Virus record (IMG/VR): IMGVR_UViG_3300010365_001248
Span: 32,001-96,000 of that record
Direction: 5' to 3' (one strand)
Origin: a virus
Taxonomy: Duplodnaviria > Caudoviricetes
DNA length: 64,000 nucleotides
Position 1 is the stretch's first letter; each line of letters begins with the position of its first letter. Of this stretch, positions 513-32,567 are shown piece after piece. Under the pieces are notes generated by a model. That model did not search any database, had not been told where the DNA came from, and was given only the letters and a program-made list of their open reading frames with translations. Made by a program: the position numbers and the translations under genes.

Positions 513-2528
513 ATCTAGAACAAGTAAAATCCATAACAAATAGAATTATGGATGTAAATCGAAAGTTAGCAGATTTAGGTGAACCAAAAATTCCTATTAA
601 TTTTATAGGTATGGCAGGTGTGGGTAAATGTGATTTGCCGTCTTATTGAGTAATTAATAAGATTATCATTGGGCAAAAACGGTGAAGACTGTGATGTTAA
701 TACCGTGGTAAGTTTTTTCATTACGAAAGGGAAAAAACCACCGTAACGCGTAGAAGGTGAATAAATATAATCCTTCCAAGAGTGTCCGACTCCTAATTTT
801 TAGGATGAATATGTACGCTGAGCTATAGAGAAAAAGAATCTATAGAAGTATAGATAAAAAGCTATACGATAACAAAACTGAAAACGAGCAGCCTAATGCA
901 AGTAGCTGAAGAAAGAGGTTGTCATATTGAAACAGTTGTCTTGTCGCAGCTTGAAGAGGTAGGTGATGAACTATAAATGTCACCTAAATTAAAAACTCTG
1001 TGAATCTGGGAAAATCATCGTTATTATATGACAACCCTAATCCAAGCCTTATAGAAATATATTGAAGGATCAACGACTAGAATTAGTAGCCTCAGCAAGT
1101 GGTGTTGGAGGTAAACATTCCACGAGTGCAGAGAATTTTCCTATATATACCAATATTTAGTGGAAAATTAAGAGATAGTCTGAACTATATATAATACATA
1201 AATTATAGAATTAAAGGATAAAGAGCCTTTAAGATAACACAATTGATTACAGGAATGCCAGTTAAATTTTATAAACTTATTGATCCTCAAGGACAAGAAG
1301 TTGAAATGGCAGAAAGTGTTGTTCCTACACTTTTAAATTCAGGATATACTATTTGTCCTAATTGCGAACCAGTTACTTCTTTTGCAAAACCAGCTTGGGT
1401 GCCAGAAGATCGAGATCAAGAGTTTATTTTACTACTTGATGATTTTACCCGTAAAAATTAATTATTAAAATTTAGGAAGCTGCGGGTGTAAAACTCTGTG
1501 AATCTGGGAAACCCTTTATAATAAAATAAAGGCAACCCTAATCCAAGCTTTGTAGAAATACACTGAAGGATCAACGACTAGATTTAGTAATCTGACCAGG
1601 TGGTGCTGAAGATGAAAAATCCACGAGTGCAGAGCAATTATTTAAACATACCAATGTTAAACGATAATTGGTGAGATAGTCTGAACAATACATATATCTA
1701 AAAGTATTGAATTAAAGGATAAAGAGCCTTTAAGATAACAATTTGTGCAATAAAACATTCCTTCAAGCAATTATGCAATTGTTGCAATTTGGTAGTTATG
1801 GTACTTGGAGATTGCCTAAATATACTACAATTCTACTTTCTTCTAATCCAGAAGATGGTATGTACGATGTAACTGAAATTGATCCAGCTTTAAGATCTAG
1901 AATGATGAATTTTGTTGTAGATTTTGATATTAAGTTATGGGCTAAATGGGCTGAATCTAAAAATAAAAATGGTCAACTAATTAATTTTGCTCTTTGGAAT
2001 CAAAAAATGTTCCAAACAGCTAATCATTCTATTAATGCTAGAAACTATTCTATGTTTATAGATGCATTGATGGGAATTAAATTGGACACTAAAAATATGC
2101 CTGAAATTATATTAATGGCACAAGGAATTTTTGGTGAAGAACTTTCTATTGCAGAAGATCTTAGAATGTTTATAGATCAGCAACTAGATAAATTGCCAAC
2201 TCCTAACGATGTCATTACTAAATCTTGGGATGAATTGGAACCAATGCTAACAGATATTCTTTATAAAAATGAAGGTTATCGTTCAGATATTGGTTTCCTA
2301 TTAACCGTTCGTTTTTCTAATTATCTTGAAGAATATTTCAAGAATAACAAAGAAAAGAAAAAAGGTGAAAAAATTGAAAAAAGATTAGTTGAGTTGTTAA
2401 CTGCTAAAAAACCTTTATTGCAAGAAAATGGTTTATTGGAAATTGTTAAAACTCTAATAACTAAGTTTGCAGCAAAATGTCCAACTTTAGTAGCAAATCC
2501 AATTATTGCTTCAAAATTATTAAATTAA
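509..2528 (+). CDS. MoxR-like AAA+ ATPase, split by 3 group I introns (exons 509-625, 881-967, 1246-1452, 1746-2528; about 397 aa)
   Basis: The spliced product restores Walker A GMAGVG|KT, LSQLEEVGD|ITGMP, Walker B LLLDDFTR|C, sensor SSNP and Arg finger DPALRSR. Confidence 0.88.
626..880 (+). mobile_element. group I intron (255 nt), variant P7 GCGTA/TACGC
   Basis: 5' exon ends GGT; P1 ggt|aaat pairs with atttgcc; 3' end GATAACAAAACTG; removal restores Walker A. Confidence 0.88.
968..1245 (+). mobile_element. group I intron (278 nt), canonical P7 GACTA/TAGTC
   Basis: P1 aggtgat pairs with gtcacct; R element TCAACGACTA; S element AGATAGTCT; terminal G; frame restored. Confidence 0.9.
1453..1745 (+). 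mobile_element. group I intron (293 nt), close paralogue of 968-1245
   Basis: P1 acccgt pairs with gcgggt; TCAACGACTA and AGATAGTCT; long identical blocks with the previous intron. Confidence 0.9.
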
Positions 2529-2530
2529 TT

Positions 2531-2869
2531 ATGAAACAATTAATTGAATTTATTAAAAACTTTTTTAGTACACCTGAAATTAAAGCTGATTATATTTTTC
2601 AAGTAGCTTTACACGGTGAACAATATATTGAGCTAGATGAAAATACTCGTATTAGAAAGTGTATTAAAAAAGCAATTGATTGGTCTTATAAAAAATCTTT
2701 ATGTGGAGAATGTCAATGTCTTGCAAAAATAGATCAAGATTTAATATCTAAAAAAGATATTATTATTGATATTCTTCAAAAAGATTACCATTTTGTAGTA
2801 AAAGATTTATCTGTATTAAATCCAAAATACAGTCATCTACTACTTTTAGATGTAGACCCATCTGAATAA
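2531..2869 (+). CDS. hypothetical protein
   Basis: ORF 2477..2869; more likely start is the ATG at 2531, just after the previous stop. Confidence 0.6.
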   Translation: MKQLIEFIKNFFSTPEIKADYIFQVALHGEQYIELDENTRIRKCIKKAIDWSYKKSLCGECQCLAKIDQDLISKKDIIIDILQKDYHFVVKDLSVLNPKYSHLLLLDVDPSE

Positions 2870-2946
2870 TATGGTTTATTTAATTATTTATATTTGTTTA
2901 ATTTTTGGTTTGCTTATTTATTTTAAGCAAACCGCTTTAATTTTTA

Positions 2947-3369
2947 ATGAAAACAATGAAAAATTCTAAAAAAATTATTATCTTTAAGCATTCTTCTTTA
3001 ACTGATTTTACAGGTGTTACACGTTATTTTTGTATTTGTGCTAGAGTACAATATGTATTTAAAGGTATTTCAACTATCACTTTTGGTTATTCTATTTGTA
3101 CTCCACCTGATGAATATAATCAGGAAACAGCAGAGAAAATTGCAAGAAAGAAAGTAGAATTTTCAAATAGACTAATTGCTTTTCCAGGTAAAATGATTAA
3201 TGATTCTGTATTAGAACAGATTCTAACTAATGAAATTGATTTCGTTAAAACTCATACCGGAGTTATTTTTAAAACTTATGCTACTGATGAACTTAAATAT
3301 ATTAAGTTACAGAAAGATATAAAAGGAGTTAAAAATGCAATTAATGAACTCAACACCACTAAAGGATAA
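2947..3369 (+). CDS. hypothetical phage protein
   Basis: 140 aa ORF in an operon; has a G.S.C.P.D.Y....A..IA pattern common in small phage proteins. Confidence 0.65.
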   Translation: MKTMKNSKKIIIFKHSSLTDFTGVTRYFCICARVQYVFKGISTITFGYSICTPPDEYNQETAEKIARKKVEFSNRLIAFPGKMINDSVLEQILTNEIDFVKTHTGVIFKTYATDELKYIKLQKDIKGVKNAINELNTTKG

Positions 3370-3517
3370 AAATAATATTATTTATAAATACCCCGAAAGA
3401 ACTTGTAAAAATTGTAAAAAATATCCTTGTTTTAAAGGATTTGATTTTATCAATTTAGATTTTGCTAAATATGGTTGTTTAAATTATGAAGCAGGATCTA
3501 AAAGAGTTTACAATTAA
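3335..3517 (+). CDS. small Cys-rich hypothetical protein (CxxC...C...C)
   Basis: YPERTCKNCKKYPCF...GC; overlaps both neighbours. Confidence 0.55.
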   Translation: MQLMNSTPLKDKNNIIYKYPERTCKNCKKYPCFKGFDFINLDFAKYGCLNYEAGSKRVYN

Positions 3518-3821
3518 AGCTAAATTATTAGCAGAAAAGAAAGATCTTTTTGGTTATACTCTTTATGTATTTCAAAATCTTGAAAATTATAATATTCATG
3601 AGAAATACATAACTCTCGTTAGATTTCCAAATTGGGAACAAAGCCCTTTTAATATAAATGAAGAGGGCTTTGTTCATTTTAAAATAGTAGAAGCTGGACA
3701 AGATGAATGGTATGATCCTAATTCTAAAAGATTTTATTATTATAATTATACTAATATGATTTTTTTACAGTTTATACCTTTAAAACCAACTACTGGAGAT
3801 CAGATATATATTTTAGATTAA
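3486..3821 (+). CDS. hypothetical protein
   Basis: 111 aa ORF in operon. Confidence 0.7.
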   Translation: MKQDLKEFTIKAKLLAEKKDLFGYTLYVFQNLENYNIHEKYITLVRFPNWEQSPFNINEEGFVHFKIVEAGQDEWYDPNSKRFYYYNYTNMIFLQFIPLKPTTGDQIYILD

Positions 3822-3831
3822 TATAATAAAT

Positions 3832-4686: not shown

Positions 4687-6475
4687 TGACTAGGGATGAA
4701 CGTCAACAACTCGTAATTAAACACTGGATTGCTACAAAAGGAAAAGGAACTTGTGAACTTCCTACTGGGTTGTATTATTTTAAATATATGAAAAAATTTA
4801 TTGATTATAAAAATATAGTAATGAATATTCTAAAGAAAATGGATTAAATTTAATAAAATATCTTTATAATAATAGTTCTATCTACTTAGAAAGAAAATAT
4901 AATTTATTTAAATTTTTTCAAAAAGGCAGCCGTTCTGTAAAGGAATTTACAGAATTATTATCGGGCAATATCGGGGGAAAGCCTATATAGGAAAATCCCG
5001 AGATAAATTTAGAAATTAAAAAATCTAAATCATTGTACAGCGTAGAAGGTGAAACTTATGAAAAATAAATGTAAATATCAAATAAAATTAAAAGACTTTC
5101 CTTATTATTGTTGTAATGCACAAAAGTATTGTCCAGCAATAATATGTCCTTTAAATTATAAAGATTGTGAAGTTTATAAGAATATAATCCTTCCAAGAGT
5201 GTCCGATATCCCAACTGAAATAAGTGGATAAACAGGTACGCGGAGCTTATAAGTAATTATAAGAAGTATGGGATAAAAAGCCCATGCGGTAACAAAACTG
5301 TTGGTAAAACTAGAGTAGCTTTAAAAATAATTGCTTTATTACAAGCAAAAAAGCCTCTAATTTCAATTAAAATACTTGTTCCGACTAATACATTAAAACT
5401 TCAATGGGAAAAAGAAATAGAGGCTTTTAAATTAAAAAAAGATACTATTTCTGTTGAAGTTATGATGGGTTCTTCCCAAAAGCAATCTGAATGTGATTTA
5501 TTAATTTTAGATGAATGTCATCGTTGTCTTTCAGAACATTTATACGCAGCTTTTACTAATATTAAATTTAGATTTGTATTAGGATTAACTGCAACGCTTG
5601 AACGTCTAGATGGTAGACATTTATTAATAGATCAATATGCTCCAATTTGTGATAGTGTTACTATTCAAGAAGCCCTACAAGAAGGGTGGCTTGCTCCATA
5701 TAAAGAATATCTTGTATTAATTGATGTAGATGATATTCAAGTATTTAAAGATTTAAATAAACAATTTACTTCAGTATTTGAATTTTTTAATATGGATTTT
5801 AATTTAGCTATGTCATGTGTAGGTAAAAAAGGTTATTATAATCGTATAAAATTAAGAGATGAAATGCTGCCAAATAATGCTACTCAAAAACAAAAATCAG
5901 ATACTCTTAAACTGATTCAATTAAAAGTAGCTCAATTTATGAGAATTCTTCAAAAAAGAAAATCATTTATAGCAAATCATCCTAAAAAGATTGAAATAGC
6001 TAAACGAATAATAGCAGCACGTTCTAATAAAAAAATTATTACTTTTTGTAAAACAGTTAAAATGGCTGAAGCTATATCAGATAAATATGTTTATACAGGA
6101 GATAAAAGTGTCAAAAAGAATAAACAAATTTTAGAGGAATTTAATAAACAAACTTCTGGAGTATTATCTACAAGTAAAATGGCTCAAGAGGGGCTTGATT
6201 GTCCTGATTTATCTGTAGGTATTTGTTTAGATGTAGATTCAAGTAAAATTAAAGCTAAACAAATATTAGGAAGGGTAATTCGTAAATATAAAGACAAACA
6301 AGCTGAATTTTTTACTATAGTAATTAATAATTGTGTTGAAGTGCAATGGTGGCAAAAAAGTCACACAGGTGCTCCAAATACTATTAAAATTGATGAAGAA
6401 GGTTTAGATCAAGTTTTGAAAGGAGAAACTCCTAGAGAAATTAAAAATCTTCAAAATTATCAATTTAGATGGTGA
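4686..6475 (+). CDS. SF2 DNA helicase (DEAD/DEAH-like), split by 1 group I intron (exons 4686-4770, 5301-6475; about 419 aa)
   Basis: The spliced product gives Walker A PTGFGKT; also DECH, GLTAT, EGLDCP and QILGRVIR motifs. Confidence 0.9.
4771..5300 (+). mobile_element. group I intron (530 nt), variant P7, AT-rich L1 insert and internal Cys-rich ORF
   Basis: P1 ggt|tg pairs with cagcc near 4927; GCGTA/TACGC; 3' end GGTAACAAAACTG. Confidence 0.88.
5058..5231 (+). CDS. intron-embedded small Cys-rich ORF (57 aa from ATG 5058)
   Basis: MKNKCKYQ...YYCCNAQKYCPAIICPLNYKDCEVYK; six Cys, in a loop that is short in sibling introns. Confidence 0.45.
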   Translation: MKNKCKYQIKLKDFPYYCCNAQKYCPAIICPLNYKDCEVYKNIILPRVSDIPTEISG

Positions 6476-6538
6476 TTTGAAAAGTTTTAAATTAGTATTA
6501 TGTATTAAACCCTGAAAAGGGTAAAATGCATAAAAAGA

Positions 6539-7174: not shown

Positions 7175-7199
7175 TATGAGAATTTTTAATTAATTTTGT

Positions 7200-8904
7200 A
7201 TGATTTCTGATGAACTTTTAAAAGAAATAGATAGAGGTAGAGAGGGTTTAAATCAAGGTACTACAACTGGTCTAGATAAATTAGATGATTTAACTGGAGG
7301 AAATTTACCTAATAACTTTATTGTAATTTTAGCTCAAAGCGGAGTAGGTAGTGTCTTACATATAAAATGCCGTTCCTATAAAGGAATTTTAGGAATTATT
7401 ACAAACCAAAAACGGGGAACTAAGTAAGAAGAATCCCGTGGTAAATATAGAAATTAAAAAGTCTATATCACCGTAGAGCGTAGGAATTGAACCTATTAAT
7501 ATAGAATAAAATATTCCCAAGAGTGGTTTGCATCCCAACTGAAAGAAGTGGATGAATAGGTACGCCGAGCTGTATTGTAAAATACAGAAGTTAAGATAAA
7601 AAGCTTAACGATAACACAACTGAAATCTTCCTTAATGTTATATTCATATTTTTATAAAGCTTTAAGAACCCATGAAAATGATGATAACTATTTTTGTTAT
7701 TTGTTTAGTTTAGAAATGTCTGCTACAATGGTACTAGGTAAAGTAATTAGTACCTATCTTTATGAGGAATTTAATGTTAGACTTTCTATAAATGATATTT
7801 TTTCAAGAAAAAAAGATTATACTCTTTCTGACGAAAATTATAATTTAGTCCTTAAAGGTATTGAATGGATTAAAAAAATGGAATCTAAATTTATTATATT
7901 TGATAAATCTCTTAATGCAGAAATTCTTTATACTTTATTATTAAAAGAATTAGAAAAAAGAGGATCTTTTCAAGAAACTGAAAATAGAAAAATTTATATT
8001 CCAAATAATCCTAATTTACTTTTTAATGTAATAATAGATCATATTTCTTTAGTTATGCCTTCTAGAGGTAGAGATTTAAAAAGAGAAATAGATTTAATTA
8101 CAGCTTATTTAGTTACATTGAGAAATATGACTAAATTAAGTCCTATTATTGTACAACAAGTAAATAGAGAACAATCTACAATGGAGAGGCGTAAGCAAGG
8201 GTTGTCGGATAGGAGGGTCCCTTGGATTTTAAAAAACAAAAATCATTTTGTATCTTTAATTAAACCTTATATTATTCCATCCATGCTTTATAAAATTCAA
8301 TAAAAATGTCCGAATAAAATTCCGTTAAACGGAGAAACTCCTAACAAGGACAACTCCGTGCTAAATTTTGAAGAAATTCAAATAAATGCCTAAAGACTAG
8401 AGATGATGCTTAACAAGTAAAGTTGAAGCTATAAAATTCTCCACGAAAGCGGGACACTGTTTATAGTAATATTTGAGAAAATATGAAATAAATTAAAGAT
8501 ATAGTCTGATCTATATAGTAATATATAGAATTATAGGATAAAGAGCCTATAAGATAACAAAAATGGTACGCCAATCCGATGCAGCTGATTCTGCAGATCC
8601 TACAAAAGCAGCTGAAGTTGTTATAGCTGTATTTAGTCCTAAAAGAGAAAAATTAAATAACTATGTAGGTTATGATGTTTCTGTATTAGATGATAAATTA
8701 AGAGCTATTCAATTACTCAAAGGAAGATATGGTATTGCAGATGTTGCTATAGCTTGTTGTTTTTGGGGAGATATTAATTATTGGCGTGAATTGCCAAAAG
8801 CTGAACATATTCGAGATTATACTAATTATCTAGAACCAAATTTTATTCCTGAACCTATTGAAACTGAATCTATTAAAATTGATATAAATAATTTTACTTT
8901 ATGA
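7200..8904 (+). CDS. dnaB: DnaB-like replicative helicase, 2 group I introns (exons 7200-7349, 7623-8210, 8566-8904; about 358 aa)
   Basis: TTGLDKLDDLTGG, AQSGVG|KS, FSLEM, IIDHI, QQVNR and KGRYG motifs. Confidence 0.9.
7350..7622 (+). mobile_element. group I intron (273 nt), variant P7
   Basis: Follows GGT in Walker A; GCGTA/TACGC; ends ATAACACAACTG. Confidence 0.88.
8211..8565 (+). mobile_element. group I intron (355 nt), canonical P7
   Basis: P1 tcggat pairs with gtccga; GACTA and AAGATATAGTCT; ends ATAACAAAAATG. Confidence 0.87.
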
Positions 8905-9185: not shown

Positions 9186-11357
9186 TGGCAATTACACTAC
9201 CTAAAACAAAACTTCCTGCACTTACTCAAGATCCTAAAAATCTAATTATTTTCGGTTTGCCTAAGGTTACCAGCCGTGCCTAAAAGGGATTTTAGGTATT
9301 ATAACTGAGTAAAAACGGTGGATGCTAAAAATTTTTCTTTTTACTATACAAAAAGTTGGAAAAAAATTATAAACTTGAATAGATTTTATTAAAAATAATT
9401 TATTTTAAGTTTATGAAAATTAATCGTTTTAAATATTCATTAAAAGATATAAAAATATTTGCAGATTATTATAAAAATAATCATACTTTATTAGAAACTG
9501 CAAAATATTTTAATATTAATTATAAAACTATGATAAATAGTTTTATTAGATTAGGGTATTATAAACCTACTAGAAAACAATTAAATAGAAAATATACTAT
9601 TTTGCATGAAGATTATTTTAGTAAAATAGATTCTCATGAAAAAGCTTATTTCTTAGGATTATTAATGTCTGATGGTTATATAGCTACAGATACTTATAGT
9701 AAAATTATGGGAATTACTTTACAATTGCAAGATGAATATATTTTAGAATATTTAAAACAAGCTATTAATCCAAATTCTAAATTACATTATTATAAAAATT
9801 CTGTTAAATTTAGAATTAATAGTACTAAAATATACAATGATTTAAAAACTTTAAATTTTTCTGAATCTAAATCAAATAAAGAATTTCATATACCAAATAT
9901 AAATAAAGAATTTTATAATTCTTTTATAGCTGGTTATTTTGATGGAGATGGATGTATTACTTTAAAAAAATCAGGTTACACAGTATGTTCTATTATATCT
10001 AATTCTAAATTAATATTAGAAGATATTCAAAAAATATTAACTGATAATAATATTTTAACAACTTTAAGAATAGATAGACCTGCTAAAAATAATAGACAAG
10101 CTTTGTATATTTTAGCTATTAATAGATTAAAAGAACAAAAAAAATTTGGAGAATTTATTTATAAAAATACTCCTATTTATTTAATTAGAAAGAAAGAAAA
10201 ATTCATGCAAATACCGTGCTAAATCTATAAATTGCGAAAGGTTATAGATCAGTGTAACGCATAGAGAGTGAATAAATATAATCTCTCCACGAGTACTCGG
10301 TATCTAGAACAGATAAAAATATATGCTGAACTATGAAGAAATTCATAGAAATACAGATAAAAAACTGTATGATAACAAAATTGTGGCAAAACAACTGCAC
10401 TTTCTACACTAGAAAATAATTTAATTATTGATACAGAAAATGGATCAGATTATGTAGAAGCTTTAAAAGTTAAAGCAACTAATATTAAAGAATTGCAAGA
10501 AATTTGTAAAGCAATTAAAGAAGCAGGAAATCCTTATAAATTTATTACAATTGATACTGTTACGGCAATTGAAGAAATGGCAAAACCATTGGCAATCAAA
10601 TATTATAGAGATTCTCCAATGTTTTCTGAAAAATATGCTCAAGTTACTGAACCTCAAGCACTTCCAAATGGAAGCGGGTGGCAATGGTGGCGACAAGCCA
10701 TTGAAAAATTGATAGATATGGTAGCTCAATGTACACCTAATTTAATTATTTGTGGACATGTTAAAGATACTAAACTTGATGAAAATACCTCAGGTTCTGT
10801 AAAAGATCTTGATTTGGCAGGTAAAAAATAGTAAAGTATTTTGCCGTCCTTAAGAGTGATCTTAAGGATCATGACGGGGCAATATCGGTGAAGGCTAAAA
10901 GTTGGATTAAAGATAATATAAATATTAAATTTAAAACAACTCATGTTAATACCGAGATAATTAATGATTTAAAAAGTCATTAACATCGTAACGCATAGAA
11001 AGTGAACCTATATTATAGAATATAATCTTTCCACGAGTGTCCTGCTCTAAATGAAAATTTAGATGAAAATATATGCTGAACTTATAAGAAATTATAAGAA
11101 CTATGAGATAAAAAACTTATAGGGTAACAAAATTGAAAACTAAAAGAGTTCTTTCAGCTAAATCAGACGCTATCGCTTTTTGTTTCAGAGACGATGATGG
11201 AAATTTGTGTTTACAATTTGGTAGTAATGGTGAAATTTTAACAGGAGCTCGTCCTGCTCATCTTGCTGGTAAAACTATTGTAGTTGCTGAAAAGAATGAA
11301 GATGGTACATTTATTTCTCATTGGGAACGTATTTATCCATCTTTGAATGAGAAATGA
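9185..11357 (+). CDS. AAA_24 / Sak4-like ATPase, 2 group I introns (exons 9185-9267, 10384-10822, 11136-11357; about 247 aa)
   Basis: The spliced product gives FGLPKVGKTT, IDTENG, TIDTVT, GHVKD and DLAG|KTK. Confidence 0.88.
9268..10383 (+). mobile_element. group I intron (1116 nt) encoding a LAGLIDADG homing endonuclease
   Basis: P1 ggt|t pairs with agcc; P7 GCATA/TATGC; ends GATAACAAAATTG; contains the endonuclease ORF. Confidence 0.9.
9413..10222 (+). CDS. LAGLIDADG homing endonuclease (two-motif)
   Basis: AYFLGLLMSDG and FIAGYFDGDG motifs; C-terminal LIRKK. Confidence 0.92.
   Translation: MKINRFKYSLKDIKIFADYYKNNHTLLETAKYFNINYKTMINSFIRLGYYKPTRKQLNRKYTILHEDYFSKIDSHEKAYFLGLLMSDGYIATDTYSKIMGITLQLQDEYILEYLKQAINPNSKLHYYKNSVKFRINSTKIYNDLKTLNFSESKSNKEFHIPNINKEFYNSFIAGYFDGDGCITLKKSGYTVCSIISNSKLILEDIQKILTDNNILTTLRIDRPAKNNRQALYILAINRLKEQKKFGEFIYKNTPIYLIRKKEKFMQIPC
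10823..11135 (+). mobile_element. group I intron (313 nt), variant P7
   Basis: ggt|aaaa pairs with ttttgcc; GCATA/TATGC; ends GTAACAAAATTG. Confidence 0.88.
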
Positions 11358-11377
11358 TAATTTTTAATTTAAATTAA

Positions 11378-12699: not shown

Positions 12700-13704
12700 A
12701 TGAATTTTAATTACTCTTCTGATAAGGTACAATTACCTATTACAAAAGAGTTTTTATTATCTAAAAATAGTGAAGAAACATATATGTCTTATTACTTAGG
12801 GATGCCCTTAAGTAATAAGGCATTTTGTAGTCCTTTAAGAAAGGATCATAAACCTTCTTGTTCACTTTGGAAAAGTAAATTAGGAACTTTATATTTTAAA
12901 GATTTTGCTACAGGACAAACTTTATCTTTTGTCAATTTAGTTATGGTGAAGTATAATTGTACTTACTCAGAAGCTTTAATTAAAATTGCAGAAGATTTTG
13001 GTTTAACTCCTGAACAAACTAATTTACAACCAATTATTCAACAAATACCTACTTTTAAAACAAAAAGTCAATCTAAAATTCAAATAGAACAAAAAAAATT
13101 TACTAAACAAGAATTAGCTTGGTGGAAACAATTTGGTATTACTAAAGAAATTTTAGATAAATTCAGTATTTTTAGTTGTAAAAATGTCTTTTTAAATAAT
13201 AAAATATTTATTACTTCTACAGAAAAATGTCCAGTTTATGGGTATTTTTATGGAATTAAAAATGGTATAGAACAATGGAAAATTTATATTCCATTAAGAA
13301 CTAAATTTAGATGGATTAATAATGCAGATAAAGAAACTACTCAAGGTTATGCTCAATTACCAGAAACAGGAAAATATTTAGTTATTACTAAATCTTTAAA
13401 AGATGTAGCTTTACTCTACACGTTTGGTATACCTGCAGTAGCTCCTTCTTCTGAAACAAGTTTTATTAAAAAAGAATTATTAGAAGAATTAAAAAATAGA
13501 TTTCAAACTATTATAGTTTTCTTTGATAATGATCGTACTGGGAAAGCTTATATGGCTAAATTAAGACATAAATATCCAGAATTTAAATATCTAATAATTC
13601 CTAGACAATTAAAAGCTAAAGATATTAGTGATTTTTATAAATTATATGGTAGAAAGTTGACTAAAGATCTTATTAAAAAAGGTTTAAAAATTATTTCAAA
13701 ATGA
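12700..13704 (+). CDS. dnaG: DNA primase (degenerate Zn-binding domain plus TOPRIM)
   Basis: CSPLRKDHKPSC, FKDF, ITKSLKD, FFDNDRTG and KDISD motifs. Confidence 0.88.
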   Translation: MNFNYSSDKVQLPITKEFLLSKNSEETYMSYYLGMPLSNKAFCSPLRKDHKPSCSLWKSKLGTLYFKDFATGQTLSFVNLVMVKYNCTYSEALIKIAEDFGLTPEQTNLQPIIQQIPTFKTKSQSKIQIEQKKFTKQELAWWKQFGITKEILDKFSIFSCKNVFLNNKIFITSTEKCPVYGYFYGIKNGIEQWKIYIPLRTKFRWINNADKETTQGYAQLPETGKYLVITKSLKDVALLYTFGIPAVAPSSETSFIKKELLEELKNRFQTIIVFFDNDRTGKAYMAKLRHKYPEFKYLIIPRQLKAKDISDFYKLYGRKLTKDLIKKGLKIISK

Positions 13705-13922
13705 ATAAAGAACTTGAAAAAAGACTTTTTGAAACTCCTTCAACTGAAATTGAAATGTTAACTGCAACTGCTTATAATAAAGTTATGAGAGAAGTAGTAG
13801 TTAATGAAGATTCAGATGAAAGAAAACTTTGTGCAATGGCAGGTAGTTAGATTTATAGAATCAAAGATAGTATTCCTGCTATTGAATATCCTGATGTAGA
13901 TAGAGCCAATGAGGCTCCTTAA
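13701..13922 (+). CDS. small hypothetical protein with one in-frame TAG (13848-13850)
   Basis: ATGA overlap with primase; 49 aa to the TAG, 73 aa to the TAA if TAG is Gln. Confidence 0.4.
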
Positions 13923-14060
13923 GCAGAGCCTCCCAGTAATAACTAATTGATATAGGTATTGGTCGATTTACTGTTAATGGAGATACTATTATTTATGAAA
14001 ATGCAGATTTTACACGATTTGGTTTTGCTACAATAGGATTACCAATTCGTCCTGTTAAAC

Positions 14061-14088
14061 AAGGTCAGTCTTAAGACTGACCTTTTTT
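14061..14088 (+). terminator. rho-independent terminator
   Basis: Perfect hairpin AAGGTCAGTC-TTAA-GACTGACCTT followed by a T run. Confidence 0.85.
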
Positions 14089-14943: not shown

Positions 14944-14998
14944 ATAAACTCATGAAAAAAGAAAAAATTAAAAATAAAATTTTAAAATTTTTAAATAT

Positions 14999-16194: not shown

Positions 16195-17479
16195 AATTAG
16201 ATGATATTAAATTAATTCCTTTAATGGATACTTTAAGATTACAAAAAATTTCAGATGAAGTTTATTTTTCTGAAAAATATTCATCTTATATTAGTAATTC
16301 TCGTTTAGGATTACTAAATCCATTACAGGATGGGACTCCTGAAAAATTTTTTCAAGGATTTGTAAATCAGGGATATAACCCTTCTTTCGAGTTAGGTAGA
16401 TGAAAATTTTTATAGTATAACTGCCGTCTTTATGAGTAATTATAAAGATTATAACAGGGCAATATCGGTGAATTCTGAAATTGAAAATACCGAGATAACT
16501 TTTGGAATAGCGAAAGGTTCAAAAGCATCGTAGAGCATAGGAAATGAATAAATATAATTTTCCCAAGAGTGTCCTGCTCCTTATATATTAAGGATGAAAA
16601 TATATGCCGAACTATAAAGAATAACAATTTATAGAAATATAGATAAAAAGCTATATGATAACAAAATTGAGTAGAACCCATGAATTAATACTCCAGCCTG
16701 AATACTTTGAATTGGCTCCTGATTTAATGCGACCAAGTGCTAAATTAGGAGCTATTGCGGATAAATTATATCCCTATTTTATTAAAAATACTATAACAGA
16801 TGATCTAGTAACAAAATTTTGTTTGGAAATAGATTATTATGTTAATCAATTAACTCCTAATAGAATTCAAAGTATTAAAGATACTTGTAATGAGTATTGG
16901 AAAAGAAGACAACAGTATGAAGCTTCTCATGAAACATCTAAAATAATTCAATATTGTGATGCTAAATTGTTAAGTACTGTACAAAGTTGTGTTGGTAATT
17001 TAAATAATCATCCACAAGTTAAATCTTTATTACACCCTGAAGGTATACTAGAAACTCCAATATCTGAATGTGAACAAGCCATTCTTTTGGATATAAAAGC
17101 AGAATTACCTAATGGAAAAAATATTATACTAAAACTAAAAGCAAAACTAGATAATTATACTATAGATAAAGAAGCTAATATAGTTACTGTTAATGATGTT
17201 AAAACTTATAGAACTGATTTAATTATGAACTGTGAAGCTTTTCATTATCATCGCGAGATAGGGTTGTATCTCTATTTATTATCAAAATGTTGTGAAAAAT
17301 TTTATAATATGAAAGATTTTACAATGAAAGGTAATTATCTAGGTGTTCAAACTCAATTTCCTTTTAGAGCTTGTGTTTTACCTGTAAAACAACAAGATTT
17401 TAAAAAAGGATTAATTGAAATGGATAAATTATTAAAATATGCTGCTTATTTAATAGGATATAAAAATTATAAATTCTAA
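16191..17479 (+). CDS. PD-(D/E)XK exonuclease (RecE/ExoVIII-like), 1 group I intron (exons 16191-16397, 16670-17479; about 338 aa)
   Basis: ISNSRL, FELG|SRTHELILQP, KAKLD...NDVKT...YHREIGLY. Confidence 0.82.
16398..16669 (+). mobile_element. group I intron (272 nt), variant P7
   Basis: ggt|ag pairs with ctgcc; GCATA/TATGC; ends GATAACAAAATTG. Confidence 0.88.
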
Positions 17480-19053: not shown

Positions 19054-19359
19054 ATGATTGTATTACACAGTGTTAGTTTAGTAGCTTTAGCTGCAATGTT
19101 AATTTATGTTATTTGCTTTTTCTGTAAATATAGATTTATTCCACAAAGTTTATCTGTAACAGCAGAAAGGTCAGGTAGATATAGATGGTGGCAAGTTACT
19201 ATCTGTACTGTAATGGGTTGGTTAAGTTATTACTTACCAACTTGTTATCCTTTTGCTATTTATGGAGCTTTACCTCTTTTAGGAGCTGCTGGTGTAGCTG
19301 GATTAGCTTTAGCTGGTTATTATTCTTATTCACCTGGAATAGAAACTAAAAGGGAATAG
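19054..19359 (+). CDS. membrane protein, possibly truncated, ends at TAG
   Basis: About 3 hydrophobic segments; IPQSLSVT motif. Confidence 0.6.
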   Translation: MIVLHSVSLVALAAMLIYVICFFCKYRFIPQSLSVTAERSGRYRWWQVTICTVMGWLSYYLPTCYPFAIYGALPLLGAAGVAGLALAGYYSYSPGIETKRE

Positions 19360-21514: not shown

Positions 21515-24500
21515 AACTGTTATAAATAAAAAGAGAGAAGAAAAAATATTTGATATAAATAAAATTCATATAGCTATTCGTAAAAGTGCTGATAGAATTT
21601 TAGTTACTCTAAATGATTCAGATTGTATTAAAATTTCAGATGAAGTTATTAATATGATTGATACTGAAAAAATAGAAGTTTCTAAATTGCATAATATAGT
21701 TGAACAAGCTCTTGAAAAAACTGGTTTTAATAAAGTAGCAGATTCTTATAGACAATATCGAAATTATAAATTAGATCTCCAAAAAACAAAAGAAACGGCT
21801 AATAATGATATTCAAGCTACTTTTATGAGTATTATTAATGCTGTTAATAATGATATTACTAGAGAAAATGCAAATATGAATTCAGATTCTCCTGCAGGTA
21901 TGATGATGAAATTTGCAAGTGAATCAACTAAACCTTTTGTAAGTAAATATCTTTTGTCTGAAGATGTTTTACTTGCAGAATCTTTAAATTATTTACATAT
22001 TCATGATAAAGATTACTATCCAACTAAAAGTTTGACTTGTATTCAGCACCCTTTAGATAGAATTCTTGAAAAAGGATTTAAAGCGGGGCATGGAGAAGCT
22101 AGAGGAGCTAAAAGAATTGAAACTGCTAGTATTTTAGCAGCTATTTCAATGGAAACTGTACAAAATGAAATGCATAAATAATACTGTGCATACTATTAGA
22201 AATAATAGGTAAAAATAAAAATAACGTGAACTTGTTTATCAGCAAGGTGTGAAAGAAACCTTTAGGGTTATATAGGAAATGATATATTTATTCTTTTGCT
22301 AACAGGGGAAGACACGTCCAAGTTTATCCTGTGCCAAGTACTAGTTACCATAAAAGTATTAATAAAAACTAGTAACTAGTAAAGGTCAAGAGACTATCGA
22401 AAAGTTATATTTTGCATAAGAAAATAAACACTTAGTAGAGTAGGGTAGAGATTGATACTATCCGAAGTGCGTTACAACTTAACATTTGAAGGTGAAGTTG
22501 ATGATATAGTCCGTCCTAAATTTATATTTAGGAAGGGTGGACAAGCAATTCCAGCTTTTGATTTTTATATGGCACCTTATGTAAGAAAAACATTTAATGA
22601 AGAAATTCTCAAAATTAAAAATTTTATGTTTGATTCAAATATTAATTGGGAGAATTTAATGAATATTAAATTGAAAGATTATATAAAGAAGCCTTTAACT
22701 GATTGTAAAGATTTGTCAGAAAAAATCATACAACAAGCTATAAATAATACAGTAGATAGAGTTCATCAAGCTATGGAATCTTTTATTCATAATATGAATT
22801 CTATTCATTCTAGAGGAGGTAAAATATGATTGCCTCCCAAATATAGTAATATATTTGTAAAAAATCCCGTAAAATCGGTGAAGTCTAAAAATATTAGGAT
22901 TCCAATAATATTCAAGATAATACCGAGGTAAGTTCTAAGATTGCGAAAGGCTTGGAAACACCGTAGAGCATAGTGGGTGAATAAATATAATCCCGCCAAG
23001 AGTATGGGACCCCAAATATATTTGGGTGAAAATGTATGCCGAACTATAAAGAAATTTATAGAAATAAAGGATAAAAAACCTTTATGATAACAAAATTGAA
23101 TCAAGTTGTATTTAGTAGTATTAATTATGGTACTGATACTTCAGCTGAAGGTAGGTGTGTAATTAGAGAACTATTAATATCTACGGAACAAGGAGTAGGA
23201 AATAATGCTACAGCTATTTTTCCGATACAAATTTGGAAAACAAAAGAAGGTGTATCAATATTACCTACTGATCCTAATTATGATTTATATAAATTCGCTT
23301 GTAAAGTTAGTGCACGCAGATTTTTTCCAAATTTTTTAAATCTAGATGCTACTTTTAACAAAGATGATGCTTGGGATATTAATGATCCTAAACGTTATGA
23401 ACATGAAGTAGCTGCAATGGGTAAGTGAAAATGCAGCCCATTTAAAACCTTTTGAACCGTGCTAACGGGTGTGGAATAAACGATTTAGTTTAGATTAATA
23501 GTCTATTAATTATTCTGCTAACTGCTAGGTCCAATAATAGCAGTTCTAAAATTATTGGATGAGGCAGTGCCAAATCGCAAAATGCGAAAGTGTGAATCGA
23601 CTATCCCTGATGAGTGTAAGGGAGTAGAATTGGAGATAAGCACCAATTCGAAGCGGAAGGCTCTAGAAATAGAGAACATATAGTCAGTACTAATGGTGAC
23701 ATTAGATTAATACGTGTAGAACCAGAGTTTATGAAAATGCTTTTGGACCTAAAACTTCAATAGGTAGAGGTAATATTAGTTTTTCTACTATGAATTTAGT
23801 TAAATTAGCTATTGAGGTTTCAATTCAAGATGAATTTTTATATAAAGAAAATAATAATTGGAAATTTAATGAAAATAAAAATTCAATTGAAGATAAAAAT
23901 AGAAGGCTAGAAGCATTTTTAATTAAATTATCAAATTTAGTAACTATTACTACTAAACAATTACATCAACGTTTTGAATTTCAAAAAACTGCTTTGAAAA
24001 AACAATTTCCTTTATTAATGCAAGGACTTTGGAATGGTTCTGAATCTTTAAAAGATACAGATACTATCGAATCAGTTATTAATTCAGGAACCCTCGGTGT
24101 GGGCTTTATAGGTTTGGCTGAAACTTTGGTAGCTTTAACTGGAAAACATCATGGAGAATCTGAAGAAAGTCAAAAGTTTGGTTTAACTATAATTAAAAGT
24201 ATTAAAGATCAATGCGTTGAAGCTAGAGAAAAATATAAGCATAATTATGCTTGTTTAGCTACTCCAGCTGAAGGTTTATCTGGTAAATTTACTAAAATAG
24301 ATAAAAAAGAATTTGGAATTATTCCTGGAGTTATTGACAAAGAATATTATACTAATTCTAATCATGTTCCTGTAGAATATAAATGTAGTATTGAGCACAA
24401 ATTTAAAATCGAAGGACCTTATCATGAATTAATTACAGCTGGTCACATCGGATATTGTGAGATTGATGGAGATTTAACTAAAAATCCAGAAGCTATTATG

Positions 24501-25215: not shown

Positions 25216-25234
25216 TTTTAATTAAATTTGCACT

Positions 25235-25663: not shown

Positions 25664-25664
25664 A

Positions 25665-26773: not shown

Positions 26774-27951
26774 TGAAACTAGTAACTAGAGATTCTAAAA
26801 ATAAAATTCGTGTTATTTATATTTCTTTGATAGAAGATATTAAAGATGTTTCTTATACTATTAAAAGAAGTAGTGGTCTACTAGAAGGAAAATTAATTAT
26901 ACAACCTGAGATTAAGATTACTAAAGGTAAAGTAAAACGTACTGTTTTTCAGCAAGCTGAACTTCAATTTAATAGTGAAGTTAAAAAGTTAAAAGACAAA
27001 GGATATAAAGAAATTTCTGTTAATTTATCTGTAGAAGAAATAGATAAGTTTTTAGGTCAAAATAAAACAGATTCAGAAGGTAATTATAAACCTATGCTTG
27101 CCAAAGCTTTAAAAGATTGTGATCAATCAAAAATTGATAATAAACAATGGTATATTTCTAGAAAAATAAATGGATTGAGATGTACTATTTGTAAACAAAA
27201 TGGTGTTTTACATGCTTTTGGTAGAGGTTCAAGTACTTATGATACTGCTATATCACATATTTTAAATCATCCTAAACTTATTGAATTCTTTGACAAAAAT
27301 CCTACTATTATTTTAGATGGAGAATGCTATAAACATGGTATTTATCTACAAGAAATTAGTGGTAAAATGAGGCAAGAATCTGAACAAATTCCTGAACTAG
27401 AATTTTATCTTTATGATGTTGTAGATCCTTCTAAAAAATTTACAGAAAGATTTAAACTTTTGCAACAAATTGAAAAGGATTTAGATTTATATTTTTTACC
27501 AGATAGAGAATGGAATGATAATGATTTAAAAATTCAAATTGTTCCTCAAGAACTTGTAAATAATTTAGATGAAATTAATGCTAAACATGATCAATTTGTT
27601 TCTGAAGGCTTTGAAGGAGCAGTTATTCGAGATCCAAATAGCTTGTATGTATGTGGCGGTAGAAATTTGTCCATGGTTAAAGTTAAACGATACTTGGATG
27701 ACTGTTTTACAGTTGTTGGAATACAACAAGGATTGCGTAAATATGATGATATGGTATTTGTTTTAAAAACTAAAGATAATTTATATTTTAATGCTAAACC
27801 TATGGGTAGTAGAGAATTAAAAATAGATTATACTGATAATTTTGAAACTAAATATAAAAATCATATTGGAGAATGTAAATTCTTTGAATATTCAAAAGAA
27901 AATATTCCTTGTCAACCTACGTTTATTTCTTTTAGATTTGATCTTGAATAA
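26773..27951 (+). CDS. ATP-dependent DNA ligase
   Basis: KPMLA, KINGLR (motif I), LDGE, YDVV, EGAVIR and KVK. Confidence 0.92.
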   Translation: MKLVTRDSKNKIRVIYISLIEDIKDVSYTIKRSSGLLEGKLIIQPEIKITKGKVKRTVFQQAELQFNSEVKKLKDKGYKEISVNLSVEEIDKFLGQNKTDSEGNYKPMLAKALKDCDQSKIDNKQWYISRKINGLRCTICKQNGVLHAFGRGSSTYDTAISHILNHPKLIEFFDKNPTIILDGECYKHGIYLQEISGKMRQESEQIPELEFYLYDVVDPSKKFTERFKLLQQIEKDLDLYFLPDREWNDNDLKIQIVPQELVNNLDEINAKHDQFVSEGFEGAVIRDPNSLYVCGGRNLSMVKVKRYLDDCFTVVGIQQGLRKYDDMVFVLKTKDNLYFNAKPMGSRELKIDYTDNFETKYKNHIGECKFFEYSKENIPCQPTFISFRFDLE

Positions 27952-27961
27952 ATAATAATTT

Positions 27962-28213
27962 ATGAAAAATATAACCAATTTATCTAATACTTATAATAAT
28001 GTAATTAAATTAGCAGATGATCTTTCAAAATTTATTAAAGATTATCAACCACAAAATGCTAATGATTACTTTGATAAAGACTTAATGGTGACTCAACTTA
28101 ATATATTACACAGTCTTGCTTGTACTTTAGCTATGCGTATTAATATTAATAGTGTACAAGAAGAACCTGAAGAGGCACCTATTATGGATAATGAGCCTTC
28201 TGTAAATGATTAA
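27962..28213 (+). CDS. hypothetical protein
   Basis: 83 aa ORF. Confidence 0.55.
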   Translation: MKNITNLSNTYNNVIKLADDLSKFIKDYQPQNANDYFDKDLMVTQLNILHSLACTLAMRININSVQEEPEEAPIMDNEPSVND

Positions 28214-29054: not shown

Positions 29055-29307
29055 GAAAGTTTTAATGAAAGGTCGCTATGGATTGAAACACTATTTAGTT
29101 GTAGATGAAGAAGATCCTAATCTATATAAATTGCAAACTGATAAAAAAACTAGTTATGTTTCAACTATAGGAGATAATTTTGATGATCTAGTAGCTGTTG
29201 ATCCTGAAGGTGGTCCTTATATTTCAAAAGGTAGTAAATTACTTAATAAAATTATTTCTTCTATTTATCAGGATGAAGATGGAACTATTTTTATTAGATT
29301 AGAATGA
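29047..29307 (+). CDS. hypothetical protein
   Basis: 86 aa; VDPEGGPYI motif. Confidence 0.65.
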   Translation: MRKKVLMKGRYGLKHYLVVDEEDPNLYKLQTDKKTSYVSTIGDNFDDLVAVDPEGGPYISKGSKLLNKIISSIYQDEDGTIFIRLE

Positions 29308-32300
29308 TTTACGCTATTTCAATTAATAAACCTCTTTACGATTGTGATGATATAAAATATATTTCTGTACAAGAAAGTATAGAAATATTGAATCAAATGT
29401 CTGTAATTCAAGTAGATAGCGAGACAAGTGGCTTAAATCTATACCTATCTAAACTTTTAACAGTTCAGTTAGGTAATGCTAAAGATCAAGTGGTAATTGA
29501 TACTCAGACAGTTGATATTAAACAATATAAATCTATTTTGGAAAGTAAAAAATTAATTCTTCATAATGCAAATTTTGATTTACAATTTTTGTATAAAGAA
29601 GGTATTATTCCAAGAAAGATTTATGATACTATGATTGCTGAACAAGTATTGTATTTAGGGTATCCTCCTGAACAAAAGAAATATAGTTTAGCTGATATTG
29701 CTCTATTTAGATTAAATAAAATAATGGATAAATCTATTAGAACAAATATTGCTAGACTAGGTTTTTGTGAAAGTGTAATACGCTATGGTGCAAAAGATGT
29801 TACTTTTCTAGAAGATATTGCTAAATCTCAAATAGCTGAAGCTCGTCAGAAAAAATGTGTAGATGCTATTATACTTGAATGTAAATTTGTACCTGCTATG
29901 GCTTATCTAGAATTTTGTGGAATTAAACTAGATGAAACAAAATGGAAAGCCAAAATGAAAAAAGATCAAACAGCTTTAAATGAATCTCAAGAAAAATTAA
30001 ATACTTGGTTACGAAATAAAGCTGCTAAAGATTCTAGGTTTAAAAAATTTATTCAGCAACAATTAAATTTATTTGGTTTTGAACCTGATATTTTATTAAA
30101 TTGGAATTCATCAGAACAAGTAGTAGAATTACTTAAATTACTTGGTTTTAATACTGAAGTTAAAGATAAAAAGACTGGAGAAACAAAAGATTCATGTCTT
30201 GAAAAAAATTTAGCTATTCAAAAAGGTATTGATGATGAATTTTTACAAATGTTTTTTGATTATAAAGGAGCTGTAAAAGTAGTATCTTCATTTGGTCAAA
30301 CTTTTTTAAATGCAATTAATCCTATTACGGGAAGATTGCACTTTCATTATAAATGTATAGGAACAGTTTCTAGTCGAATGTCTAGTGGTACAGGTAGAGA
30401 TGCTGAAATTGCTAGATATAAAGGACTTTTAGAGAAAGATTGTCCTAATCTAAATGGGCAACAATTACCTCATGATGCAGAAACTAGAGCTTGTTTCGTA
30501 TCTGAACCTGGAAATCTTTTCGTTTCGTGTGATTATTCGAGTTAAAAATTGACTTATAATTTAAACAAGATCAAATAATTAAATTATTTAATAAATTATA
30601 TTTAAATGCCCATGTATTTTTAAAAAGAAAATATATGAAATGGCTCGACTTTTATGAAAGTAAAAGAAATAAAATGGCTTAAACTGCGGGAACCAGAGGC
30701 AACTGCAATCCGCAACGAAACTTGTCCGCCTAAAAGGCAATTCCAAAGAGACAAGGACGCTCAGAGACTATAATAGCCACACCTAAGTATATTTATATAT
30801 ATGGTGAATGGATAGTCCAGCCTAGTCAGGCTGCAAGAAGGTTATATGCAAGCAGAAATATATGATGAACCTGTACTAAAAGAAATGTATCGTAATGGAT
30901 TAGATTCTCATAGTGTTAATGCTAAAATCTTTTTTAAAGACGAATTAAAAGATATTCCTATTGAAGATGTTAAAAAATTAAGACCAGATTTAAGATCTAA
31001 AGCTAAAGCTCCATTTTTTGCTCTTTCTTAATTGGTAAATTTGTCTTTTTGTTGTAAAAACAAAAAGTTATTACAGACTATTTAAATAAATTTTGTTTAA
31101 ATAGGAAAAAAACAAATTTTTGAGACTTATAGAAGTAATTCTATATGAAACATTGGGTGAATTGCTGGAAAGCTAAACATACTGTAAGTGCATGCCAATC
31201 AGCAGCTTAGTTAACGAAAAGCATAAAAGTAGTTAAAAAGTTCAACGACTAATCTTTGAGAAGCTTATCAATAAAAAGATCACGAGTGCCCAACTCCTTA
31301 ATAAAGGATGATGATATAGTCTGAGCTATATGGAAACATATAGAAATGTATTATAAACAAATACATGATAACATAACTGATGGAGGATCTGCTTCAACTT
31401 TAGTAACTTCTTTAGGTATTTCTAAAAAAGAAGCTCAGCAAATTGTAAATAACTATCAAGAAGGTTATAAAGCAACAATGGAATTTGCTAAAAGGGGAGA
31501 AGCTTTTGTCAAAAAATATGGATATATTTTAATTAATAAAATTACTGGTTTAAAACTATGGTGGTGGGATCATAAAAATTGGTTAGAAGAAGAATATTAT
31601 TTATGTGAACACCCTGAAGAAAGGCGATCTAAAAAATTTAGAACACACAATTCCGTATTAGCTCAATATAGTAGATATTCAAGAAATTATCCAAGTCAGG
31701 GTAAACAAAGACTGCCCTGGGTAAACTCCTTAAATTCGGTGAAAACTGAGATGTTAATACCGAGCCAAGTCTTTTAGTAATAAAAGAAAGGTGTAACGAC
31801 TAGTATATGGAATCCTTTTATAGGATAGTAAAATACCACGAAAAGGGAGATTATATTTTTACTTTTTGTAAAAATATATTAAGATATAGTCTGAACAATA
31901 ACGAAAAAGAAGTTATTGAATCTAAAGATAAAGAACTTTAGAGTTAACATATTTGAGTTCAGCTTCTATGACGAAAACAGCTGCTACAAATCTATTTAAT
32001 TGGATAGTTGATAATGGATATTTTGGTATTATTAAATTAGTTAGTATGGTGCACGATAAACATTTTGTTGTGGGTAAATAAGGTTAACTGCTGGGACATC
32101 TTAAAGATATTTTCACTACAATTTATTCTGAAAAGATAGATGAAAGTTTAAAAAGAAAATATATTATTATTATAATGAATAGACAATCAGCAACGTATAA
32201 CCTAAGTAATAAATTATTTATTATAAGGTTATATGCTCAGAGACTATCCGTCAATGGAGTAAGCTCCAAGAGGAGTTGAAAAGCCTTAATATAGATATTA

Positions 32301-32567
32301 ATTCTTTATCTAGAAAAATGCTTTCTAGTAAATTAAAACAAATATCTATATAAGATATAGTCCGATCTTAATAGAAATATTAAGAGATATTACGGAATCG
32401 GTAATATCGTAACACAAATGGAAATGTCCTGTGAATATCCTGATAAACCTGAATTTCAAGATTTTCCTAGAAGATTAGAAAATTTTATGATTGATGCAGG
32501 TAAAGTTTTTGTTACTTCTTTAGATATGAAAGCAGTAGCAGAAGTAGGAAATCATTGGATCCACTAA
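29304..32567 (+). CDS. polA: family A DNA polymerase with 3'-5' exonuclease, 4 group I introns (exons 29304-30542, 30834-31029, 31380-31702, 31956-32057, 32421-32567; about 668 aa)
   Basis: ExoI DSET, HNANFD, motif A DYSS|QE, motif B RSKAK..FALS-Y-GG, NYPSQG|SSA, motif C VHD|E. Confidence 0.95.
30543..30833 (+). mobile_element. group I intron (291 nt) in PolA motif A
   Basis: P1 tcgagt pairs with gctcga; TCAGAGACTA and GATAGTCC; minimal P9 AGCCT/AGGCT, then G. Confidence 0.88.
31030..31379 (+). mobile_element. group I intron (350 nt) splitting the motif B Tyr codon
   Basis: P1 tctt|aa pairs with ttgaga; TCAACGACTA and GATATAGTCT; T+AT gives Tyr. Confidence 0.88.
31703..31955 (+). mobile_element. 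group I intron (253 nt)
   Basis: P1 cagggt pairs with gccctg; ACGACTA and AAGATATAGTCT. Confidence 0.9.
32058..32420 (+). mobile_element. group I intron (363 nt) in PolA motif C
   Basis: P1 cacgat|aaa pairs with tttgttgtg; TCAGAGACTA and AAGATATAGTCC; removal restores VHDE. Confidence 0.9.

Follow-up and report, generated by a model that had tools for sequence, protein, structure and literature searches.

Sixteen probable group I introns in the replication genes of a crAss-like phage and their polymorphism among close strains

The stretch of DNA analysed here (the window) comprises 64,000 nt, bases 32001-96000 of IMG/VR virus record IMGVR_UViG_3300010365_001248 (G000; record length 163,912 nt, completeness estimate 94%), and is AT-rich, with a base composition of about 26% G+C. 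Between positions 626 and 32420 of the window, seven genes on the + strand lie in pieces when their stop-to-stop reading frames are followed, the pieces being separated by 16 insertions, here called I1 to I16. We hold with good confidence, which applies to the two statements jointly, that these insertions are genuine group I introns and that they are selfish elements, mobile and quickly turned over, which the phage does not carry as a fixed feature. Judged by its sequence, the phage is probably crAss-like: its PolA shares ∼41% identity with the polymerases of crAss001 and of other crAss-like phages of Bacteroides, which are the best named matches. A megablast search of the PolA region against GenBank phages returned only trivial matches of 30-40 nt.

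All seven interrupted genes belong to replication or nucleotide metabolism. The first encodes an AAA_5-type ATPase in which I1 (626..880, 255 nt) splits the Walker A motif (GMAGVG|KTS), I2 (968..1245, 278 nt) lies at LEEVGD|ITGMP and I3 (1453..1745, 293 nt) follows just past Walker B (LLLDDFTR|CNK). I4 (4771..5300, 530 nt) falls in motif I of an SF2 helicase (ELPTG|FGKT), while a DnaB-like helicase carries I5 (7350..7622, 273 nt) in its Walker A motif (AQSGVG|KSS) and I6 (8211..8565, 355 nt) in motif H4 (GLSD|VRQSD). An AAA_24 ATPase is interrupted in Walker A (GLPKV|GKT) by I7 (9268..10383, 1116 nt) and further on by I8 (10823..11135, 313 nt; DLAG|KTKR), and a RecE/exonuclease VIII-like gene with a match to PHROG 412 is interrupted by I9 (16398..16669, 272 nt; FELG|SRTHE). 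Three insertions divide NrdD, namely I10 (22176..22535, 360 nt; QNEMH|GGQ), I11 (22821..23098, 278 nt; SRGG|NQV) and I12 (23423..23714, 292 nt), the last exactly at the radical cysteine (AAMG|CRT). Four more divide PolA: I13 (30543..30833, 291 nt) in motif A (DYSS|QE), I14 (31030..31379, 350 nt) in motif B (FALS-Y|GG, within a split codon), I15 (31703..31955, 253 nt) at PSQG|SSA, and I16 (32058..32420, 363 nt) in motif C (VHD|E). Boundaries were set so that a U precedes the insertion, its last base is G, and its removal leaves an open frame in which the motif is restored. This independent delimitation arrived at the same outer limits as an earlier note on this DNA, which had described 16 group I introns and had singled out the Walker A motifs of four NTPases (I1, I4, I5 and I7), the position past Walker B (I3), the MG|CRT of NrdD (I12) and PolA motifs A, B and C (I13, I14 and I16); the introns are confirmed and the named sites hold. 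A candidate seventeenth mini-intron at about 13842-13960 (frames at 13677-14075; AMAG|...RFTVNG) was rejected, as no relative supports the joined protein; it is a deletion scar, the strain described below having 615 extra nt there that form a 261-aa gene.

When the insertions are removed, the conceptually spliced proteins show no alignment gap at any of the 16 junctions relative to uninterrupted homologues. The spliced PolA (668 aa) and NrdD (777 aa) are collinear from end to end with unbroken genes in many IMG/VR phage contigs, and the junctions are likewise free of gaps in the SF2 helicase (compared with the distant relative G003), the DnaB-like helicase, the exonuclease and the first, AAA_5-type ATPase. 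Homologues of this ATPase were found by protein search; a locus search with its C-terminal exon returned no relatives. Eleven junctions are also confirmed in DNA by a sister strain, the 165,372-nt Logan contig ERR12023022_753 (walked by exact-protein look-ups), whose shared DNA has 96-98% identity (about 97%) to that of the window: the spliced sequence aligns without gaps to its intron-less DNA, with 47-60 of 60 flanking bases matching (60 of 60 at I8). The arrangement is not an assembly artefact, because four further public assemblies are 99.995-100% identical to the window over I10-I16 or, in two of them, over I13-I16.

Each of the 16 insertions has the hallmarks of a group I intron at its ends: a U at position -1, a terminal G (omega G) and a P1 helix with a U.G pair. 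The guide that pairs with the 5′ exon lies 8-30 nt inside the intron in 11 cases, about 93-101 nt inside in I6, I13 and I14, and about 155 nt inside in I4. Examples of P1 are GGU|AAAU with AUUU[G]CC in I1, seven exon base pairs plus U.G in I2, UCGGAU with [G]UCCGA in I6 and CAGGGU with GCCCUG in I15; for I4, I5 and I7 the helix was taken from the family alignment described below, the automatic scan having put other candidates first. Covariance-model searches of the kind that the earlier note had proposed as a check gave a divided answer. Two introns score above the gathering score of RF00028 (I14, 79.5 bits; I2, 51.5 bits), and seven match significantly (E from 1e-9 to 1.5e-3) but below it (I6, 45.9 bits; I3, 42.2; I15, 39.2; I13, 38.6; I10, 33.6; I16, 30.7; and I1, 23.6 bits, E = 0.0015), while no RF00028 match was obtained for I4, I5, I7, I8, I9, I11 and I12, six of which are homologous to I1. 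The nine matches, all of them full-length, were found with short segments; a permissive scan of 34 kb found four introns and the default Rfam scan of the window only one (I14). The default scan misses 15 of the 16 because its speed filters act on AT-rich DNA, a practical warning for surveys of similar genomes.

The introns sort into at least eight unrelated sequence groups. One of them, family A (I1, I4, I5, I7, I8, I9 and I11), has a P7 of GCRUA/UAYGC in place of the usual GACUA/UAGUC and is scarcely recognized by Rfam, although nhmmer scores reach 63-66 bits for I4 and 113 bits on the 3′ core of I7. From an alignment of the five short members (I1, I5, I8, I9 and I11), RNAalifold recovered P2, P3, P4/P5, P6/P6a, a P7.1-like hairpin, P8, P9 and P9.1, and P7 was added as a pseudoknot. 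With the P3/P7 pseudoknot included, 96.4% of the alignment cells are paired, compared with 33-45% in controls with slid partners; both sides have changed in 43 of 66 pairs, and the observed values were reached by none of 500 shuffles. Such heavy compensation despite only 52-76% identity between copies argues that the family A fold has been kept by selection, and the core elements are kept in all seven members, the fold test itself covering five. For I12, which has no Rfam match, a manual fold gives P1 (AAUGGGU/GCCCAUU), P3, P4-P6, P7 (GACUA/UAGUC), P7.1, P7.2, P8, P9 and the terminal G. One covarying hairpin in family A and two hairpins in I12 are inserted between P7 (5′ strand) and P3 (3′ strand), and the Rfam alignments of I2, I3, I14, I15 and I16 show an insertion at the same point; where checked (family A, I12, I2, I3 and I14-I16), the predicted folds are thus of IA-like type with extra P7.1/P7.2 hairpins. 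I2 and I3, only 207 nt apart in one gene, are sister introns with 80% identity across 208 nt, and their guides (GUCACCUA and GCGGGUG respectively) differ, each fitting its own 5′ exon. Along with the exon U that pairs with a G of the guide and the terminal G, a conserved P3-P8 core with a P7 G-C pair would supply what self-splicing requires, and the pre-mRNAs would most likely be repaired by the two-step, guanosine-initiated reaction.

As the earlier note had reported, fourteen of the 16 insertions are 253-363 nt long and have no open reading frame (ORF), and the whole set of 16 has one recognizable endonuclease gene. It lies in I7. This gene (9413-10222, + strand) is located in the P5 loop and matches Pfam LAGLIDADG_3 (PF14528, E = 1e-15); its translation contains two LAGLIDADG motifs (LGLLMSDGY and IAGYFDGDG), both with the acidic residue kept, as would be expected of an endonuclease. 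To this picture we can add a decayed LAGLIDADG remnant in I4 (4811-4990, + strand), a 59-aa frame corresponding to the C-terminal part of such a protein, with 91% identity to residues 267-323 of the intact 350-aa ORF of the sister strain. I4 also contains a Cys-rich ORF of 57 aa (5058-5231, + strand) within an extra insertion of about 110 nt in the P7.1 region; this ORF matches nothing in Pfam or PHROG, and the equivalent DNA is kept in the sister's I4. None of 20 other ORFs of the region has a homing-endonuclease domain. In all, 15 of the 16 introns are without an intact endonuclease gene.

A single intact intron ORF in the region, together with the fact that some fungal LAGLIDADG proteins are maturases, could suggest that the other 15 introns rely on the I7 protein as a maturase in trans, as the earlier note had proposed. 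We consider this highly improbable: maturases are intron-specific, whereas the introns here fall into at least eight unrelated groups; the cores of family A are complete; the I7 protein keeps both catalytic aspartates, as in an endonuclease; self-splicing is established for phage IA introns, those of T4 among them; and the sister strain, though it does have other LAGLIDADG genes (in I4 and I11), lacks I7 and still contains I13 in ORF-less form.

Comparison with the sister strain shows how variable the intron complement is. The sister precisely lacks 11 of the 16 introns (I1, I2, I3, I5-I9, I14, I15 and I16). Only I13 is common to both strains in ORF-less form, and the remaining four introns are larger in the sister, where each contains an endonuclease-type gene: I4 is about 650 nt longer and carries the 350-aa LAGLIDADG ORF, I10 is about 490 nt longer with an HNH_3/NUMOD4 ORF, I11 is about 980 nt longer with a 325-aa LAGLIDADG ORF, and I12 has about 694 nt in place of some 118 nt in the window and carries a GIY-YIG ORF. 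Other close strains hold yet other subsets, the species-level cluster comprising at least 60 contigs. The 90%-identity protein cluster of the first ATPase, from genomes of 164-173 kb, contains a 397-aa full-length form (24 contigs) as well as 353-, 326- and 251-aa forms, and the 90%-identity clusters of the DnaB-like helicase, the AAA_24 ATPase, the exonuclease and the C-terminal part of PolA also hold many allele lengths; the intron-less alleles are the more frequent forms, with 22-25 contigs each. One contig (L135) has I1, seen by its 3′ end, and lacks I2 and I3, a pattern that could be DNA polymorphism or spliced RNA. Given the differing subsets seen in the sister, the allele-length clusters and L135, each intron is independently polymorphic within one phage species, so that the load cannot be regarded as a conserved trait.

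This polymorphism bears directly on another suggestion of the earlier note, that the load acts as a splicing-dependent checkpoint tying the expression of replication genes to GTP, Mg2+ or temperature. Unspliced RNA would indeed give truncated proteins, as can be seen in the sequence, and the seven genes are all of replication or nucleotide metabolism. A regulatory device would nevertheless be hard to reconcile with the absence of 11 of its 16 parts from a strain that is ∼97% identical, or with the independent polymorphism of every intron examined. Late genes are interrupted too. Outside the window, the gene for the large terminase (TerL) contains two extra family A introns (G000:C1:150218-150520 and 150950-151215, - strand), and there are further RF00028 matches at G000 147393-147605 and 131241-131769 (- strand), one of them at 82 bits, which brings the genome total to at least 20 group I introns (16 in the window, two in TerL and two Rfam matches elsewhere). 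The checkpoint is unsupported by these data, and we think it very unlikely.

The load is best explained by the ordinary life cycle of homing endonucleases and their introns, running here at extreme density. What favours this account is that distant relatives hold endonuclease-bearing introns or inteins at the same sites. The I5 site in the DnaB P-loop is occupied in G003 by a family A intron with a 351-aa LAGLIDADG ORF, and the I8 site in G002 by a family A intron with a 384-aa LAGLIDADG ORF. Three contigs (L018, L019 and L034) have ORF-bearing insertions at or close to the I14 site in PolA, a fourth (L025) has a 938-nt insertion at the I15 site, and a fifth (L087) has a different intron at the I12 site. 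By residue number, the ORF-bearing insertions seen in contigs other than G002 and G003 lie at positions ∼478 and 586 of PolA and 225 and 428 of NrdD, the two NrdD sites being occupied by short ORF-less introns in still other contigs. In two further cases (L049:2805-6050 and L056:2493-5963), NrdD is a single ORF of 1082-1157 aa with an in-frame insertion of about 300-340 aa exactly at MG|C, which from its sequence is probably an intein. Inteins in P-loops and in ribonucleotide reductase active sites use the same sites as the introns, with the difference that the occupants here act at the RNA level.

Under the homing account, an intron would invade with co-conversion of the flanking exon and later lose its endonuclease. 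I4, I10, I11 and I12 would represent the second step, their endonuclease genes being intact in the sister and presumably deleted in the window strain, and I7 would be an intron that still carries its own. Acquisition would probably take place in DNA, by double-strand-break repair from a diverged donor. Upstream of NrdD, mismatches to the sister within 50 nt of the eight polymorphic junctions amount to 6.6%, compared with 3.0% overall (P = 0.008); the differences cluster at the guide-pairing bases of the 5′ exon, and the -1 base is not T in five of the 11 empty alleles. That the guide-pairing bases differ between intron-bearing and empty alleles favours DNA-level homing with co-conversion. The concentration on conserved motifs might be expected as well, since homing endonucleases target conserved coding sequence and any insertion or excision at such sites would have to be precise. 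Among windows of 8 residues, those at the NrdD junctions rank in the most conserved 3-10%, and those of PolA at the 46th-89th conservation percentile by this crude measure, though inside named motifs.

Several points weigh against this interpretation. Splicing is predicted from the DNA sequence, and I12 gave no covariance-model match, its putative fold being based on a manual reading and an unrelated intron at the same site. Selection for P1 pairing, or for empty sites that resist the endonuclease, might have raised the mismatch rate at junctions in place of co-conversion, and the comparison of the two strains is compatible both with gain in the window strain and with loss in the sister. No donors were found, the family A copies (52-76% identical) including no recent intragenomic copy, and for 11 ORF-less introns no mobilizing endonuclease was identified among the close strains.

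An alternative view of the missing endonuclease genes, raised in the earlier note as immunization, is that ORF-less introns are kept for protection, since they split the endonuclease recognition sites of co-circulating strains while sparing the cost of an endonuclease gene, and would keep this strain from being cut or outcompeted when infections are mixed. The data fit this: the sister has endonuclease-bearing introns at the I4, I10, I11 and I12 sites, distant relatives have such versions at the DnaB P-loop, the second AAA_24 site and PolA residues 478 and 586, and the window strain is also without a free-standing ORF of the sister (an insertion of about 855 nt at window 14954-14974, described below). 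Empty sites are moreover common in the population, so that a shortage of targets does not explain endonuclease loss. Resistance is automatic with any intron occupancy, however, and nothing shows that resistance itself has been selected; seven sites have no endonuclease-bearing version in any strain seen, and the intron-less alleles persist as the more frequent forms. Protection as a selected function is therefore a tentative idea, which we judge possible but rather doubtful.

Family A shows how target sites may be chosen. All seven members in the window, and eight of nine genome-wide, are preceded by GGT in all three codon phases, and they share the guide GCC; as background, GG precedes only 2.7% of T positions. 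Often this GGU encodes the glycine of the P-loop G-K-[ST], and five copies lie within P-loop-coding stretches of different NTPases (AAA_5, SF2, DnaB, AAA_24 and TerL). The I8 site is not a P-loop, yet has the same GGT|AAAAC sequence. Of the two TerL copies, one is preceded by GGT and the other lies inside a Walker A-like KARSI|GFS with an altered guide (GUCG pairs with CGAU). Similarity among the sites is limited to about 4-6 nt (RGGU|AAA). As a target rule GGU|AAA alone is insufficient, given that the genome contains 211 GGTAAA hexamers and that several P-loops are uninterrupted. A recent intragenomic burst of the family was also rejected, its copies being no nearer to each other, at 52-76% identity, than to copies in distant relatives.

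The shortness of the shared site and the indifference to codon phase, with eight of nine copies after GGU, would suit spread by reverse splicing at GGU|AAA-like sites through the 3-nt guide, followed by copying into DNA. The same 211 hexamers and uninterrupted P-loops speak against such a route, as does the presence of LAGLIDADG genes in relatives' family A introns. No reverse transcriptase was seen, and the exon flanks, including the -1 base, differ between alleles in a way that better fits DNA-level co-conversion; we regard reverse splicing as improbable. A more speculative extension of the homing account, unlikely as a whole, is that one LAGLIDADG-linked intron lineage (P7 GCRUA/UAYGC, 3-nt guide) colonized five unrelated NTPase P-loops and other GGU sites by hopping between look-alike targets, and that the nearly endonuclease-free set of 16 introns constitutes standing immunity against the endonucleases of sister strains. 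If this were true, the intron load would be both a record and a tool of phage-against-phage competition.

A familiar case is T4, where IA-type ribozymes likewise interrupt nucleotide-metabolism genes of a lytic phage (td, nrdB and nrdD, or sunY). The T4 introns carry GIY-YIG or HNH endonucleases (I-TevI, I-TevII and I-TevIII) in their loops, home with exon co-conversion, and are missing from intron-less relatives, but T4 has only three introns in 169 kb. Its nrdD intron, some 12-15 residues upstream of I11, coincides with none of the three NrdD sites of the window. A cycle of invasion, fixation, endonuclease decay and intron loss was reportedly described by Goddard and Burt for LAGLIDADG introns of fungal mitochondria. 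All stages of a similar cycle are found here among close strains: the empty site, the intron with intact ORF (I4 and I10-I12 of the sister, I7 of the window), the remnant (I4 of the window) and the ORF-less intron. Unlike the fungal case, this is a virus population with about 3% divergence, with 16 sites involved at once and empty sites still common. In the Bastillevirinae and the SPO1 and Twort phages, genes such as those for PolA, terminase and reductase contain several group I introns, of which some self-splice in vitro, and a debate between a 'molecular switch' and an 'anti-competitor weapon' applies there too. Cultured phages have far fewer introns than the present one: up to six per genome are tabulated for Bastillevirinae (PMC11878797), whereas here PolA by itself has four and the 32-kb region 16.

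The earlier note was right that crAss-like lineages rich in introns are known, and both the high intron density in large crAss-like phages and the kind of element are already published. The 'Zeta' and Delta crAss-like groups, with genomes of 145-192 kb, have many group I introns in core genes together with LAGLIDADG ORFs, inteins and TAG/TGA recoding; the introns were located through endonuclease domains, giving up to 14 introns and three inteins per genome (Yutin et al., 2021; PMC7886860). The present phage resembles them in its 164-kb genome, its PolA (41% to crAss001) and an encoded tRNA with a CUA anticodon, of amber-suppressor type (G000:C1:157152-157241, - strand, outside the window), a likeness by these features and not a placement in Zeta. 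It differs in that 15 of the 16 introns are without an intact endonuclease gene and would escape detection by domain, in its total of at least 20, and in the strain-level presence and absence seen here, which was not described for those phages. What is new, then, is the near-absence of endonuclease genes, a strain series spanning the stages of the homing cycle, and a LAGLIDADG-linked family in five P-loops. For a virus, the set is very dense (16 introns in 32 kb; at least 20 in the 164-kb genome) and its limits are well defined. Because nearly all of its introns are without endonuclease genes, surveys that screen crAss-like phages by domain will find too few introns and will wrongly annotate core replication genes as fragments. 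With the series of near-identical strains, the homing cycle, co-conversion, the cost or benefit that introns bring, and competition between phages through endonucleases also become open to direct tests, for which metagenomes already available and simple biochemistry would suffice.

Some further observations concern mobile genes and stop codons in these phages. A late-gene region of the genome outside the window (G000:C1:130500-132900, - strand) contains group I matches together with GIY-YIG-type ORFs. The insertion of about 855 nt in the sister (L154:2652-3581) encodes a 309-aa DUF723/treble-clef zinc-finger ORF, by its sequence probably a free-standing mobile nuclease-like gene. In-frame TAG codons, two to five in each, occur in the LAGLIDADG ORFs of the sister's I4 and I11 (L137:13352-14404 and L154:11970-12947) and in its DUF723 ORF, which has five. 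The HNH ORF of the sister's I10 has TAG only as the penultimate codon, right before TAA, and there is none in the sister's GIY-YIG ORF or in the I7 ORF of the window. The TAG-containing endonucleases may be full-length only once TAG is read through. Among more distant relatives, the unbroken PolA genes of two contigs (L021:6001-8022 and L027:6001-8010) contain nine and six in-frame stops respectively when read with table 11, a sign that these two phages may have reassigned stop codons. Finally, the sister has about 194 extra nt between two collinear blocks (window 19353-19355; 27873-28067 in the stitched coordinates of the sister).

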